Below are positions 1,241 to 4,699 of a stretch of DNA of 4,917 bases, piece by piece. The stretch lies in the IMG/VR virus record IMGVR_UViG_2671180814_000001. One strand, 5' to 3'. Position 1 is the first letter of the stretch. Each line of letters starts with the position of its first letter. The notes below the pieces were generated by a model, which had not been told where the DNA came from, searched no databases, and saw only the letters and a program-made list of their open reading frames with translations. Source of the DNA: a virus (taxonomy: Duplodnaviria; Heunggongvirae; Uroviricota; Caudoviricetes). Position numbers and translations under genes: made by a program.

Positions 1241-1417
1241 ATGAGGGACAAACCCGCGAACCATAAACGCGGTAAAAACCCGGTGTGCATCGTTTTTGAT
1301 TATTCCCGCACACTCGCGCAGAAGGAGTTCCCCGTCGGGCTACGGTCATGGTTAATACGGGAATACGGCGACGATACAGCGCATGATGTGTCAGGCTTGA
1401 ATACCTTTATCCTTTAA
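1241..1417 (+). CDS. Hypothetical small protein (58 aa from ATG 1241; the ORF track starts at GTG 1202), opposite orientation to the late genes
   Basis: AGGA at 1228-1231 sits 9 nt before ATG 1241. A hairpin with a T-run on the plus strand follows about 50 nt downstream (1464-1490). The position between Rz and cos, on the opposite strand, is where lambda carries bor, but the protein is not Bor-like and I do not recognise it. Confidence 0.25.
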   Translation: MRDKPANHKRGKNPVCIVFDYSRTLAQKEFPVGLRSWLIREYGDDTAHDVSGLNTFIL

Positions 1418-1463
1418 AAGGGATATCAGTTAAGTTATCCCGTGTAGGGTATAAGCCATTATC

Positions 1464-1490
1464 AAAGCCACTCTGTAGGAAGTGGCTTTT
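1464..1490 (+). terminator. Candidate intrinsic terminator hairpin (stem AGCCACT/AGTGGCT, 8-nt loop, TTTT tail; A-run on the other side, so possibly bidirectional)
   Basis: 7-bp perfect stem at 1466-1472 and 1481-1487, followed by TTTT at 1487-1490. Confidence 0.4.
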
Positions 1491-1501
1491 GTAATGGCAA
1501 T

Positions 1502-1525
1502 AAAAAGCCCCGCGAATGCGAGGCT
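1502..1525 (-). terminator. Rho-independent terminator for the minus-strand (late) transcript
   Basis: Minus-strand RNA AGCCUCGC-AUUC-GCGGGGCU followed by UUUUU: an 8-bp GC-rich stem with one G-U pair. A near-identical element follows the other Rz copy at 3478-3500. Confidence 0.5.
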
Positions 1526-1558: not shown

Positions 1559-1702
1559 TCAACGCAGCCCCTTACCGCGCGCAAAATGCTCAATATCAAG
1601 CATCAGCAATGAGATGTTTAATCTGGATTCACTCCAGAAGTGAGCACCACCCTGTCTACAGAGCCAGATGTGAAGGATGATGAGTAAAATTATCGCTATC
1701 AT
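1559..1702 (-). CDS. Possible small membrane protein (47 aa, [47 protein letters not shown]), translationally coupled to Rz
   Basis: ATG at 1700-1702 overlaps the Rz stop at 1699-1701 (ATGA). The N-terminal 14 residues are strongly hydrophobic. The ORF ends about 35 nt before the terminator at 1502-1525. It is below the ORF-track length cut-off and was found by manual translation. It is absent from the equivalent position after the second Rz copy. Confidence 0.25.
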
Positions 1703-2166
1703 CGAAGGCATTGCGTCCTGATGTATTCCTGAAGCGTTCTCAGTGCTGTTTGGTCGCGGATAATTCCGTCCCGGATACCGAGAACGTTTCGTCCAGCAAC
1801 TGGAGAGAGTTCGACGGTGGCATCATTGCCCATGCCGGAGGCGCTGGAGGTTTCGGCTGAGGATGGCACAGGGCATTTTCCTTTGACGAGCACCCGACCA
1901 CCATTATCAAGCTTGCGCCGAAGAGCATCATTTTCAGCTTTCGCATCAGCTAACTCCTTCGTGTATTTAGCATCGAGTGCATCAGCATCACGCTGGCGCT
2001 GCTGCATGTCAGTAATGGTTGCGTTCGCCAGCTTCAGTTCTCTTGCGTTTTTGTCGCGCTGCTCTTTGTAGGTAATGGCGTTATCACGGTAATGATTAAC
2101 AGCCCATGACAGGCGGACGATGATGCAGATAACCAGAGCGGAGATAATCGCGGTGACTCTGCTCAT
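1699..2166 (-). CDS. Rz: Rz i-spanin (inner-membrane spanin subunit), lambda type
   Basis: The N-terminus [34 protein letters not shown] (TM helix) followed by a coiled-coil-like region matches lambda/DLP12 Rz as recalled. ATG at 2164-2166 overlaps the upstream endolysin stop (ATGA). A C-terminal Cys is present. Confidence 0.85.
1740..1946 (-). CDS. Rz1: Rz1 o-spanin lipoprotein, embedded in the +1 frame of Rz, lambda type
   Basis: [21 protein letters not shown] has a lipobox (VVGC) and is followed by the proline-rich [16 protein letters not shown]. It resembles lambda Rz1 (MLKLKMML...VVGC...PPPPPAW) and lies entirely inside Rz. Confidence 0.8.
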
Positions 2167-2281: not shown

Positions 2282-2465
2282 NNNNNNNNNNNNNNNNNNN
2301 NNNNNNNNNNNNNNNNNNNNNNNNNNNNNNNNNNNNNNNNNNNNNNNNNNNNNNNNNNNNNNNNNNNNNNNNNNNNNNNNNNNNNNNNNNNNNNNNNNNN
2401 NNNNNNNNNNNNNNNNNNNNNNNNNNNNNNNNNNNNNNNNNNNNNNNNNNNNNNNNNNNNNNNNN
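2282..2465. other. Assembly/scaffold gap (184 N)
   Basis: Uninterrupted run of N. It begins inside the endolysin reading frame, so real sequence is missing here (at least the 5' part of the endolysin and probably a holin). Confidence 0.95.
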
Positions 2466-2578
2466 GTTATTTCCCCACTTACTGGCTTGGGTTGTTTCGT
2501 GGTACTGCCGTTAACTGGTGGCCCAGAATAAATTCCGGTTTCATTATCAAGCCCACCCGTAAATGGGCTTTGTAATGG

Positions 2579-2836
2579 CTACTTCGCTTTTGCTTCCGCT
2601 CGCTTACGCCGGCGCTCTTCTTTCCTCTCGGCTTTTGCCATGTCCATGAATGCCTGCATGATCGAGTTCCGCATCATGTAGCTAACAAAGTGATGATTGA
2701 CACAGCCGTTGAGGCGCAGCTGCTCGCCAAACTCATCCACCGAGGCCAATGCTTCCATCATGCCCTTCTCGCCTTTCATGAACTCTGAGAAGTCGCGCCC
2801 CGCTCTGGAGGCGCATTCAATAACATGATCACTCAT
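2579..2836 (-). CDS. Hypothetical 85-aa protein with an acidic N-terminal half and a strongly basic/charged C-terminal tail; downstream partner of the KilA-N-like gene
   Basis: ATG at 2834-2836 overlaps the stop of the upstream ORF (ATGA). C-terminal tail AKAERKEERRRKRAEAKAK. A hairpin (AAGCCCA/TGGGCTT, 2549-2570) lies 9 nt past the stop. I do not recognise the family. Confidence 0.5.
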   Translation of the reverse strand: MSDHVIECASRAGRDFSEFMKGEKGMMEALASVDEFGEQLRLNGCVNHHFVSYMMRNSIMQAFMDMAKAERKEERRRKRAEAKAK

Positions 2837-3330
2837 CCCGGAAGCCCGGGGATCGTAATCTGCAGCTGGTTAGCCAGGGAGTTAATCTCAGCGACCAACA
2901 CTGGCTTCGTATAGCGCCATGCTGCCAGCCCTTGTCCGCAGAAGCTCGCCATGTCTTTCTTCTGGTCAAATTCATGACATTTCATGTTGAGCTGCGCACT
3001 TAAGCTGTTGCGATGCTGAAGTTCTCCGGTGAAGTAGTCATCGAGGACTTTATAGGCCGCGTACTTGAACCCGGGGTTTAACCAAGCCGCATAATCGTAA
3101 GCAACAAACTTCCCGCCATATGTTCCACCGTGTACACCGCGCTCAGTAAAAACCACAGATTCGTGGTTTTTCTCCAGCTCGGCTAAGAACTCTTTGGTCT
3201 GCTTGTTTCGCAGGTAGTGGTAAGGCGATTCAGATTCACTTTTACCACTGGCTTTCCACATATCAGTGAGGCAGATCATGCCATCTTCACCGATACGAAT
3301 TGGTTGATTGAAGAGGGTTAATGATTTCAT
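2833..3330 (-). CDS. KilA-N-domain-like protein (165 aa), function unknown
   Basis: The N-terminal ~110 aa fit the KilA-N pattern as I recall it: LFNQPIRIGEDGMICLTDMWKASGK ... EFLAEL ... GGTYGGKFVAYDYAAWLNPGFKYAAYKVL. The C-terminal ~55 aa are unassigned. ATG at 3328-3330; a weak GAG/AGG SD lies upstream. Preceded by the tandem terminators that follow the complete lysis cassette. Confidence 0.6.
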   Translation of the reverse strand: MKSLTLFNQPIRIGEDGMICLTDMWKASGKSESESPYHYLRNKQTKEFLAELEKNHESVVFTERGVHGGTYGGKFVAYDYAAWLNPGFKYAAYKVLDDYFTGELQHRNSLSAQLNMKCHEFDQKKDMASFCGQGLAAWRYTKPVLVAEINSLANQLQITIPGLPG

Positions 3331-3445
3331 AGCGTGTACCTACTCTTTGAAATGAACCTTTGCCGCACAGGAAACCAGCCCACCGAGGCTCGCCAGCACT
3401 AACTGGTATCCTCAAAGGCCCATTCCAAAGGGGCAGGTTCGGTGT

Positions 3446-3470
3446 AAAAAACATGCGTTGCGGTACGCAT
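3446..3470 (-). terminator. Candidate intrinsic terminator (stem ATGCGT/ACGCAT, 6-nt loop, U6 tail on the minus strand)
   Basis: Perfect 6-bp inverted repeat at 3453-3458 and 3465-3470. On the plus strand it is preceded by AAAAAA at 3446-3451, which is the U-run on the minus-strand RNA. Confidence 0.4.
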
Positions 3471-3477
3471 TTATTGC

Positions 3478-3500
3478 AAAAAGCCCCGCATCGCGAGGCT
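3478..3500 (-). terminator. Rho-independent terminator directly downstream of Rz (same module as 1502-1525)
   Basis: Minus-strand RNA AGCCUCGC-GAU-GCGGGGCU followed by UUUUU. It lies about 30 nt after the Rz stop and is near-identical in sequence to the element at 1502-1525. Confidence 0.5.
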
Positions 3501-3531
3501 CATTAAATGGACTTTGTGATTTGCAAAAAAA

Positions 3532-3990
3532 TTATTTCAGGCATTGCGTCCTGATGTATTCCTGCAGGTAGTTAACCTGCGCGGTTATCTTGTCGATTCC
3601 ACTTCGGAGACGGTAATAATTGAGTTCAGCATCTGCTGTAAGTCCTGGGCTTTCTCCATCGCCCATGCCGCTGGCTCCGGTCGTTGACTTTGCACAGGTG
3701 GCGGCGACTTGCAGGCGCTTACGCCCAGCAGAAACATCAGCACGGAGACTTTCGATAGTCGCGTTAGCATCAGCAAGCTCCTTTATGTATCTTGCGTCGA
3801 GTTCTGCTACATCACGTTGACGCTTCCGCATGTCAGCGATGGTGGCGTTCGCCTTCTCCAGTTCACTGGCCTTGTTATCGCGCTGCTCTTTGTAGGCGAT
3901 TGCGTTATCACGGTAATGATTAACAGCCAATGACAGGCAGACGATGATGCAGATAACCAGAGCGGAGATAATCGCGGTTACTCTGCTCAT
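3532..3990 (-). CDS. Rz: Rz i-spanin (second variant; C-terminal half diverged from the copy at 1699-2166)
   Basis: [35 protein letters not shown]-terminal TM helix followed by a charged coiled-coil-like region. GGGGGA SD before ATG 3988-3990. The ATG overlaps the endolysin stop (ATGA). Rz1 is embedded. Confidence 0.85.
3585..3770 (-). CDS. Rz1: Rz1 o-spanin lipoprotein, embedded in the +1 frame of Rz (second variant)
   Basis: From ATG 3768-3770: [20 protein letters not shown] (signal peptide with lipobox Cys) followed by the proline-rich [16 protein letters not shown]. Entirely inside Rz. Confidence 0.75.
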
Positions 3991-4484
3991 TGTTTCCCCC
4001 ACAAACAGACTTCACGCTCAATCTCACGGCGAGTCATCAGTCCTTTCCATTGATTACCGCCAGCGTATGTCCAGCGCCGTAGCTGATCACATGCGCCTTT
4101 AATATCACCCTGGTTTATTTTGCGAAGAAGCGTCGATGTTCTGAAATTGCCAGCGCCCACGTTGTAAACGAACGAGTAAAGAGCGCCGCGCGTTGTTTCC
4201 GGTATATCGACTTTGATGTACGGGTTAATTTGTCTGGCGACAGTGGCAAGGTCTTTATTCAGGAGAGCTTTGCACTCTGCTTCGGTATACGTTTTACCGG
4301 GAATGATGTCTTTTCCTGTATGCCCGTAACATACAGTCCATACACCAACTATGTCTTTGTAAGGATTATGTCTCACACCTTCCAGACCATCGTTACCACC
4401 TGGGCCAGTGATTAACACAGATGCTATAGCAATAGCCCCGCCACCAATAGCAGCAGCAACAGCTTTTCGTAATGATGGAGGCAT
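3987..4484 (-). CDS. R: SAR endolysin (phage-21 R / DLP12 RrrD-type lysozyme with an N-terminal signal-anchor-release domain)
   Basis: 165 aa. [28 protein letters not shown] is a Gly/Ala-rich weakly hydrophobic SAR segment. It is followed by a T4-lysozyme-like catalytic region (LEGV...YKD...VWT). Near-identical to the phage 21 R protein as recalled. The start overlaps the holin stop (TAATG). Confidence 0.9.
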
Positions 4485-4699
4485 TATCCACCTCTCGCAG
4501 CCTTGCGCTTATCTTCTTTAATCTTGAAATAAAGGTTTGTCAGGTACGTCAGCAGGCCAAATACCAGGCTACCCAGCACTCCAATTGCCGCCCACTGTGA
4601 GGGCGTGACTTTATCTAGCAGCTGTAAAAACCAGTACCCGGCACTACCTGCTGAGGTGCCATAGGCGACACCCGTTGTTAACTTATCCATGGATTTCAT
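4484..4699 (-). CDS. S: Pinholin, S21 family (class II holin, 71 aa) with a dual-start motif
   Basis: [71 protein letters not shown]: two TM segments and a charged C-terminus. Met1-Lys-Ser-Met4 is the antiholin/holin dual start. A strong SD (GAGGTGGGG) precedes the ATG. Near-identical to phage 21 S / EssD as recalled. Confidence 0.9.

Follow-up and report, generated by a model that had tools for sequence, protein, structure and literature searches.

A late-region KilA-N gene pair of the hkbK/hkbL type and the conserved leader RNA that precedes it

Known relatives of the pair

Phage HK620 carries two adjacent genes, hkbK and hkbL, between Rz and its terminase genes, and the same two genes are found in phages ECP1 and PhiR49_1, in Stx2 phage 1717 (gp49/gp50) and in phage 2851, where 'kilA' is followed by a 'putative bacteriophage protein'. 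We analysed this pair in a 4,917-nucleotide (nt) stretch of viral DNA (IMG/VR record IMGVR_UViG_2671180814_000001, Caudoviricetes), the whole of which is called the window in the following. A preliminary description made from its letters alone had pointed to two minus-strand open reading frames (ORFs) of 165 and 85 amino acids (aa) with an ATGA overlap at positions 2833-2836, and we read them from the sequence exactly as claimed. The 165-aa KilA-N protein shares 96-100% identity with its counterparts in ECP1, PhiR49_1, HK620 and Shiga toxin (Stx) phages, and the 85-aa protein is ~98% identical to that of the HK620-type pairs, which share the ATGA overlap and the Rz/terminase site with the window; only the length of an (AK)n tail and the unverified downstream context of the window differ. 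The unit had been presented as out of place at this position, but it belongs to a standard, already described late-region gene set (hkbK/hkbL in HK620, p60/p61 in HK97). We conclude that the gene pair is known, catalogued and ordinary, though functionally uncharacterised. It is present in about a third of complete E. coli genomes and itself adds nothing new to the catalogue; the leader RNA in front of it is the only part of the locus that might be new.

Of 5426 complete E. coli genomes, 1723 had a match to the cassette DNA, which extended over 80% or more of the cassette length in 380; 206 phage records matched as well. With few exceptions the pair occupies the variable site between Rz and the terminase genes (HK620, HK97, HK022, mEp and Stx phages). 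The lysis cassettes ahead of it are of phage-21, lambda or GH19 type, and the terminases behind it are Nu1/A, P22-like or, together with HNH, HK97-like. Klebsiella and Raoultella phages have the pair among their tail genes instead. It is usually annotated as 'KilA-N domain-containing protein' and 'hypothetical protein', and as 'KilA-N-ORF11CD3' in ECP1 and PhiR49_1.

More distant systems share parts of this arrangement. In HK97 (p60/p61), HK022 (p55) and mEp235 (gp59/gp60), the small protein is 79-95% identical to that of the window. These phages agree with the window in the position, the leader RNA and the presence of a KilA-N gene upstream, but the upstream protein (242-263 aa, 23% identity) belongs to a different KilA-N subfamily and has a P63C C-terminus instead of ORF11CD3. 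P22 Rha, annotated as an anti-repressor, has the post-Rz position, an ORF11CD3 C-terminus and a near-identical leader RNA in common with the window; it differs in its N-terminal domain, which is Phage_pRha and not KilA-N, and no partner of the small-protein family (PHROG 875) lies behind it. Orf11 of Pseudomonas phage D3 (166 aa, late operon), after which the ORF11CD3 domain is evidently named, combines KilA-N and ORF11CD3 like the window protein, but is 27% identical to it, is encoded between head and tail genes and lacks the small partner; at the D3 locus a covariance-model search found no leader, and the upstream fold contained no comparable hairpin. HkbK of phage phiEt88 has the KilA-N and ORF11CD3 architecture too. 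A further relative, the prophage-borne protein BstA, likewise has an N-terminal KilA-N(-like) DNA-binding domain (PMC8585504). It differs from the window protein in its size (~307 aa), in a C-terminal domain of its own and in the internal self-immunity element aba. BstA is reportedly encoded near the immunity region and expressed in the lysogen, whereas the window protein is encoded in the late operon behind a terminator.

A Pfam profile search confirmed the KilA-N domain that had been suspected in the 165-aa protein (PF04383, 57.6 bits at a cutoff of 23.8, E 1.3e-15, residues 9-101). The C-terminal ~55 aa, thought to be unrecognisable, correspond to the Pfam domain ORF11CD3 (PF10549, 50.5 bits at a cutoff of 25, E 2.4e-13, residues 109-161), and the protein also matches PHROG 129 and PHROG 10441. 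Its AlphaFold2 (AF2) model (predicted local distance difference test score, pLDDT, 84.5) consists of an alpha/beta N-terminal domain of the order beta-beta-alpha-alpha-alpha-beta-alpha and of long C-terminal helices (86-130 and 132-156). The domains P22_AR_N, ANT and P22_AR_C of P22 Ant-type antirepressors gave no Pfam match in the 165-aa protein, and PHROG 'anti-repressor' families matched it weakly only (E 6e-4 to 2e-3). Pfam, PHROG and other profile scans of both cassette proteins revealed no nuclease catalytic domain (HNH, GIY-YIG, LAGLIDADG or similar). Judged by its domain content, the 165-aa protein belongs to the 'Bro network', a group of DNA-binding regulators of phages that shuffle their domains. 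A decayed-looking cassette was seen in Leclercia adecarboxylata NCTC13032 (locus L011, 4408-5234), where the KilA-N frame is interrupted and the match to the small gene starts at residue 11.

The 85-aa protein belongs to PHROG 875 (phrog_875, E 1.3e-53), a family of unknown function, and had no match in Pfam, NCBIfam or PADLOC. Its AF2 model (pLDDT 92) contains three helices (3-20, 26-42 and 48-84), and the C-terminal tail is rich in Lys, Arg and Glu. That the ORF is a real, conserved gene, as had been assumed, was borne out by comparison with the copies of Klebsiella, Raoultella and Scandinavium: the ratio of nonsynonymous to synonymous substitutions (dN/dS) was 0.05-0.12, with dN of 0.07-0.25 and saturated dS, which indicates strong purifying selection. 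The family is tiny, with 137 clusters at 90% identity, all from Enterobacterales, and only 20 representatives among 1.84 billion proteins. The length of the tail varies by (Ala-Lys)n repeats, giving proteins of 85, 87 and 95 aa (window 2579-2620; L001 6114-6401; L002 6114-6377), and in HK97 the tail is frameshifted. A zinc site formed by Cys8, Cys45, His48 and His49 was considered and is not claimed: the Cys residues are invariant, but the His residues are replaced by Gln or Tyr in some members. P22 orf80, a DUF2560 protein, was rejected as a homologue (hhalign probability 0.3%).

The two genes had been suggested to travel as a unit, and they do: they were adjacent in all 80 IMG/VR loci and also in HK97, HK620, mEp235, Stx phages and the tail region of Klebsiella phages. 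A Bro-network gene lay immediately upstream of the small gene in these 80 loci and in all of the ~15 other loci examined, and this partner varied: KilA-N-ORF11CD3 (165 aa), KilA-N-P63C (242-263 aa) or a divergent Phage_pRha protein. The 4-nt overlap of ATGA type was found in HK620, Stx 1717 and Klebsiella phage RAH1 and also in the Rha-type pair of locus L025, which is part of an Arc/Arc/P22_AR_N operon; some other small-protein relatives adjoin Arc/antirepressor (immI-like) modules. In two distant homologues (P0132, L009 5001-5495; P0134, L023 4001-4540), the small domain is N-terminal and fused to T5orf172/MUG113, a GIY-YIG-like domain. One of these fusions adjoins a KilA-N-P63C gene and an Arc/Bro-N module, and the other sits between lysis and terminase genes. 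These fusions suggest that PHROG 875 may be an unrecognised small domain of the Bro network.

A conserved leader RNA that pairs the Shine-Dalgarno sequence

Ahead of the KilA-N start codon, 115 nt fold into a single long hairpin (-48.7 kcal/mol, z -3.3; complement strand -34.7). The whole leader (~135 nt) consists of a short hairpin (P1, 3453-3470) and the long hairpin (3338-3438), whose 3' base (3338-3343, GUAGGU) includes the Shine-Dalgarno sequence. Three parts make up this architecture: a short hairpin (GCGC...GCGC), a long one with a 3' bulge that is conserved, and a basal helix in which the Shine-Dalgarno sequence (AAAGG or GUAGG), located 8-11 nt ahead of the ATG, is paired. They are kept in highly divergent sequences of HK620-type phages, HK97, mEp235, Klebsiella phages, phiEt88 and P22 (before rha), and upstream of genes in Cronobacter, Pantoea, Enterobacter, Leclercia and Trabulsiella.

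We aligned 17 leaders by sequence only (MAFFT) and folded the alignment with RNAalifold. The consensus contained 26 pairs, 18 of them with compensatory double changes, and in its basal helix columns 79-83 (CCUUU) pair with columns 173-177 (AAAGG). The fraction of paired cells was 93.9%, compared with 80.1% in shuffled alignments (0 of 500 shuffles as high), and pairing fell to 31-51% when the partners were moved by 1-3 columns. G-U cells outnumbered A-C cells (22-24 versus 6-9), which favours an RNA on the sense strand. A larger leader set gave 94.9% of cells paired and compensatory changes in 18 of 20 pairs.

A covariance model built from 16 sequences was searched in 45 sources and yielded 44 sense-strand matches at E <1e-4, every one of which ends at a start codon; the match in the window is at 3328-3468 (84 bits). 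Matches before genes outside the training set concerned a KilA-N gene (the fourth Bro-network gene of locus L110), two HNH_3-AP2 genes (L013, L105), a T5orf172 fusion (L023) and a 297-aa protein of unknown function. In two complete genomes, those of P22 and Klebsiella phage ST11-VIM1phi8.1, the model matched a single time each, before rha and before the KilA-N gene, respectively, and not before ant or the Arc-controlled Bro-N gene. Copies of the leader lie at 3328-3470 of the window, L003 1635-1772, L020 3421-3551, L116 39508-39646, L013 3552-3680, L105 1002-1128, L023 3876-4003 and L112 4419-4532, and four times in L110. Rfam gave no match to the leader at gathering thresholds in the window or L001, and chance-level matches only in 3250-3600 at E up to 10. 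The conserved, covarying helix that pairs the Shine-Dalgarno sequence argues for a cis element that sequesters the ribosome-binding site (RBS), with a predicted effect on translation.

With Gifsy-1 isrK-orf45-anrP, P1 c4/ant, P4 CI/seqA, T4 I-TevI and Aeh1 mobE this leader would share the principle of an mRNA that is produced with its RBS held in a stem, so that translation depends on a further event. The window leader is a different RNA from isrK and C4, with no Rfam match to either family even at E up to 10. The homing endonuclease genes I-TevI of T4 and mobE of Aeh1 are controlled by RBS-sequestering hairpins. In the late region of the lambdoid prophage Gifsy-1, the antirepressor-like gene of isrK-orf45-anrP is transcribed and remains untranslated until a small RNA opens the structure (PMC4825925), and P4 CI/seqA and P1 c4 are further examples of RNA-level silencing of Bro-type or antirepressor genes (PMC10111431).

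Taken together with the range of genes that it precedes, the leader may represent an undescribed regulatory architecture of enterobacterial temperate phages, a suggestion that we make tentatively and rate somewhat below an even chance. A ~135-nt leader that buries the RBS would keep Bro-network and homing-endonuclease-like genes of the late operon (KilA-N, Rha, P22_AR_N, HNH_3-AP2, T5orf172 and one of unknown function) silent until a trigger arrives, and PHROG 875 would serve as their shared partner or adaptor. The leader thus offers an experimental handle on the whole Bro-network gene class, which is abundant in prophages, Stx phages and satellites.

Two loci deserve mention for their leaders. 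In P22 (L116, NC_002371), the annotated rha start (39575) lies inside the leader hairpin. The ATG with which the leader model (39508-39646) ends, at 39644-39646, is equipped with a Shine-Dalgarno sequence, and the annotated Rha enters the Pfam pRha domain only at residue 48; the deposited start is probably ~23 codons too far upstream. A contig of Salmonella enterica serovar Kottbus (L110, 428-4034) carries four Bro-network genes around a phage-21-type holin and endolysin (KilA-N-ORF11CD3, P22_AR_N-ORF11CD3, KilA-N-ORF11CD3 and KilA-N), each with one copy of the leader, and the third is followed by a 14-residue remnant of the small gene (VSNRVIECASRAGR...).

Expression and possible roles of the cassette

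The preliminary description had placed tandem terminators upstream of the cassette. Two hairpins do exist there, and that at 3477-3505 is an intrinsic terminator, but the other one (3453-3470) is the first hairpin of the leader. A hairpin similar to the terminator follows the other Rz gene of the window (1506-1525), an equivalent terminator is annotated in mEp235, and intrinsic terminators lie immediately upstream of several leader-gene units. We scanned the minus strand between 3331 and 3531 for promoters and found no sigma-70-like site; the scan covers sigma-70 consensus sites only, so that a weak or activator-dependent promoter would escape it, a limit that counts against the reading of the locus favoured below. 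The locus with four leader-gene units (L110) did not contain a sigma-70-like promoter either, although chance alone would have given 3.5. A promoter inside the leader hairpin, with 'fold-back inhibition' of read-through in the style of IS10, was considered and dropped: no conserved -35/-10 pair was visible by eye and none was found by the scanner.

At the other end, the hairpin noted there is stable (2545-2575, -17 kcal/mol, z -2.9) and conserved; on the minus strand it has no U-tract behind it. On the plus strand the hairpin is followed by the U-rich UUUGUAAU, so that plus-strand genes which converge on it in related prophages can use it as a terminator. The first 37 nt past the stop codon of the small gene are ~95% conserved in nearly all IMG/VR contexts examined, and hairpins of different sequence occupy the equivalent position in mEp235, Scandinavium, Klebsiella and Raoultella. 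Mosaic junctions bound a unit of Shine-Dalgarno sequence, two genes and hairpin at 2542-3341 of the window (exact boundaries 2542 and 3335-3341), and the upstream junction often reaches as far as the stop codon of Rz. Similar hairpin motifs (GCCATTACAAAGCC...GGCTTTGATAATG, minus strand) occur twice in the window: that at 2541-2578 follows the small gene, and that at 1461-1499 lies in the prophage segment without cassette, upstream of a shared 224-nt block (1276-1499). In many IMG/VR loci this block is found 37 nt past the small gene, which looks like a recurrent mosaic junction.

The cassette had been described as a moron, that is, as self-contained accessory cargo. Accessory it is, as prophages of the L008 type lack it and pass directly from Rz to the terminase region. 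It is not self-contained, since no promoter was found and a terminator and an RBS-occluding leader lie upstream. If the term is taken strictly, as a gene with promoter and terminator of its own and with expression from the prophage, the cassette as read from its sequence is not a moron. The same features argue against the proposed superinfection exclusion or any other function expressed in the lysogen, and favour late-only expression. This apparent double block, of transcription by the terminator and of translation by the leader, narrows the plausible roles and speaks against prophage defence. The P22-like prophage Gally of E. coli LF82 has rha at the post-Rz site and showed no moron-level transcription in the lysogen (PMC9928086).

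Starting from the domain identities, the conservation, the gene linkage, the absence of a consensus promoter and the covarying leader structure, we infer an accessory pair of the hkbK/hkbL type that would act as a late-only, translationally gated, Rha/antirepressor-like DNA-binding module. We favour this explanation at close to, though below, even confidence. The unit would be transcribed only by Q-antiterminated late transcription and would be silent in the lysogen, as suggested by its co-orientation with the late operon, the terminator in front and the lack of a detected promoter. RNA polymerase modified by lambda Q reads through terminators. The leader would keep translation of the KilA-N gene low or gated until the hairpin is opened or processed; candidate triggers are cleavage of the long stem by RNase III and a factor acting in trans, either RNA or protein. 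The small protein would be made in step with the KilA-N protein through the ATGA coupling. The products would be a KilA-N protein that ends in a coiled-coil-like tail and a small, helical protein whose tail is basic. Possibly in a complex, they would bind DNA late in the lytic cycle and modulate the genomes of the host or of co-resident phages in the manner of Rha or antirepressors. P22 rha (Phage_pRha and ORF11CD3), which shares the post-Rz site and a near-identical leader, is consistent with this module, as is the conservation of the pair behind different lysis cassettes and ahead of different terminases.

Several observations weigh against the explanation just given. Structure comparisons lent no help: Foldseek of the KilA-N AF2 model against the Protein Data Bank (PDB) gave nothing significant (the Mbp1 APSES domain was second at E 0.79), the fold search of the 85-aa protein against PDB and BFVD gave nothing below E 0.15 and generic helical bundles only, and a PDB sequence search found no solved structure related to either cassette protein. 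In the literature on ORF11CD3, PhiR49, hkbK/hkbL, HK97 p60/p61 and mEp phages we found no functional study. Moreover, the small protein is conserved (79-95%) between the window and HK97 while the KilA-N partner diverges (23%), so the small gene may act independently of its neighbour. KilA-N-ORF11CD3 genes without the small partner occur in Pantoea (L114, 88% identity), Cronobacter, Erwinia phage phiEt88 and D3, which makes an obligate complex unlikely. Gene order and divergence thus point to a one-sided dependence, in which the small protein goes with Bro-network genes generally and is not cognate to this KilA-N protein.

This one-sidedness also argues against a toxin-antidote pair, in which a KilA-N protein toxic to the host would be neutralised by the small co-translated protein. 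KilA of P1 is lethal when expressed, and the ATGA coupling and the strict adjacency of the small gene to a Bro-network gene are as expected for such a pair. Neither obligate co-occurrence nor co-variation of antidote with toxin was seen, though: KilA-N-ORF11CD3 genes lack the partner in the four cases named above, and the same small protein stands behind the highly divergent KilA-N genes and also behind a pRha gene. We consider such a pair very improbable. A prophage-encoded module for defence or superinfection exclusion, expressed in the lysogen like BstA, is quite improbable as well. The site between Rz and the terminase genes is occupied by bor in lambda; it often holds lysogenic-conversion genes, and DUF1398 and YlcI genes lie near the cassette in L001. 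A PADLOC scan of the cassette gave a weak match to the candidate system PDC-S22 (E 1.2e-8, ~30 residues), and BstA itself is a KilA-N-like prophage defence protein (PMC8585504). The BstA models in PADLOC did not match the 165-aa protein, however, and its C-terminal domain is different. The cassette is oriented as the late operon, with no promoter found and with the terminator and the RBS-occluding leader directly upstream, and the equivalent rha-bearing prophage is without moron expression in lysogens (PMC9928086).

The leader can also be read as part of a selfish, homing-type mobile cassette, a leader-gene unit that, in mixed lytic growth, would spread between related phages. DNA targeting would then be the task of the KilA-N protein, either alone or together with its partner, and the RBS-occluding hairpin would limit toxic expression, as it does in free-standing homing endonuclease genes of T-even phages. 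The occurrence of the same leader before HNH_3-AP2 genes (L013, L105) and a T5orf172/MUG113 gene (L023) fits this explanation, as do the fusions of the small-protein domain to T5orf172 in P0132 and P0134, the units at several late-operon positions (after lysis genes, between tail genes and four in tandem in L110), the mosaic boundaries exactly at 2542 and 3335-3341, and the RBS-sequestering hairpins of T4 I-TevI and Aeh1 mobE. Nevertheless, no catalytic nuclease domain could be recognised in either cassette protein, and the high conservation of the unit, which many lineages keep under purifying selection, would also agree with a function that benefits the phage. We regard homing as unlikely.

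Layout of the window and its assembly gap

All recognisable genes of the window are on the minus strand (Table 1). A spacer of 200 nt separates the complete lysis module from the KilA-N ORF, and of the large terminase gene only the start lies within the window.

Table 1. Position, strand and basis of the features recognised in the window
Feature	Position	Strand	Basis or remark
Phage-21-type lysis module, complete	3532-4699	minus	PF04971, PF00959, PF03245 and annotation of homologous loci
Holin EssD	4484-4699	minus	part of the complete phage-21-type lysis module
Signal-anchor-release (SAR) endolysin RrrD	3987-4484	minus	part of the complete phage-21-type lysis module
Rz	3532-4002	minus	with embedded Rz1, 3585-3776
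Intrinsic terminator, GAGCCUCGCGAUGCGGGGCUUUUUGC	3477-3505	minus	fold; directly 3' of Rz, counted as upstream context
Structured leader	3328-3470	minus	fold, covariation; ends at ATG 3328-3330
Gene, 165-aa KilA-N and ORF11CD3 protein	2833-3330	minus	ORF list; homologue of HK620 hkbK
ATGA stop/start overlap	2833-2836	minus	plus strand reads TCAT
Gene, 85-aa small protein	2579-2836	minus	PHROG 875; homologue of HK620 hkbL
Hairpin, 3' cassette boundary	2545-2575	both	fold -17 kcal/mol, z -2.9
Run of 184 N	2282-2465		masks the join of the cassette to the partial second lysis region
Partial second lysis region	1699-2281	minus	endolysin 3' end 2163-2281 (~119 nt) and second Rz/Rz1 1699-2178
DUF1441-type small terminase gene	389-883	minus	contiguous with the partial second lysis region

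The cassette had been said to lie between two lysis modules. The second of these 'modules' lacks a holin and most of the endolysin gene, and it is joined to the cassette only across the run of N. The two Rz regions are 87% identical over 345 nt only and thus come from different modules. The left flank of the gap (32-2281) is 97.7% identical to L008, a prophage without the KilA-N cassette, and the right flank agrees at 97-100% identity with a second prophage type (L001, L028). In this second type, a stretch of 183 nt and then a homologue of window 1276-1499 invariably come after the 113 nt to the right of the gap. The gene order of the window was covered by none of the 5426 complete E. coli genomes, lysis genes or remnants downstream of the cassette were found in none of the 80 IMG/VR loci and none of these 5426 genomes, and the exact pattern spanning the run of N had no match in genome, viral and metagenome collections. 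As the order occurs in no other genome examined and the join passes through 184 N, the double-lysis context is unverified; a scaffold join between two prophages of one genome is probably the better account than a real arrangement. The case illustrates why gene arrangements should not be read across assembly gaps.

The length of the gap (184) is nearly that of the 183-nt stretch found after the counterpart of position 2466 in all related prophages (L001, L010 and L028-L036). The flank on the opposite side, however, falls in the middle of an endolysin gene that belongs to another type of prophage. The gap is probably a scaffold join or a masked stretch. The equivalent of the run of N and window 2466-2578 in L001 (5818-6113) contains three minus-strand ORFs of 20-23 codons between the cassette and the convergent DUF1398 and YlcI genes, at least one of them with a good Shine-Dalgarno sequence (MSAEGFNNPSKFRDEWDSSVKSK). 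L010 (JARKOR010000234.1) is a 4-kb contig filed in a metagenome-assembled genome (MAG) of 'Candidatus Nanosynbacter sp.' and is 99-100% identical to the present E. coli prophage region; in this Saccharibacteria MAG it is almost certainly a binning contaminant. A hydrophobic ORF of 50 aa on the minus strand of the window (1559-1711) overlaps the end of the second Rz and is a hypothetical protein in the matching prophage L008.

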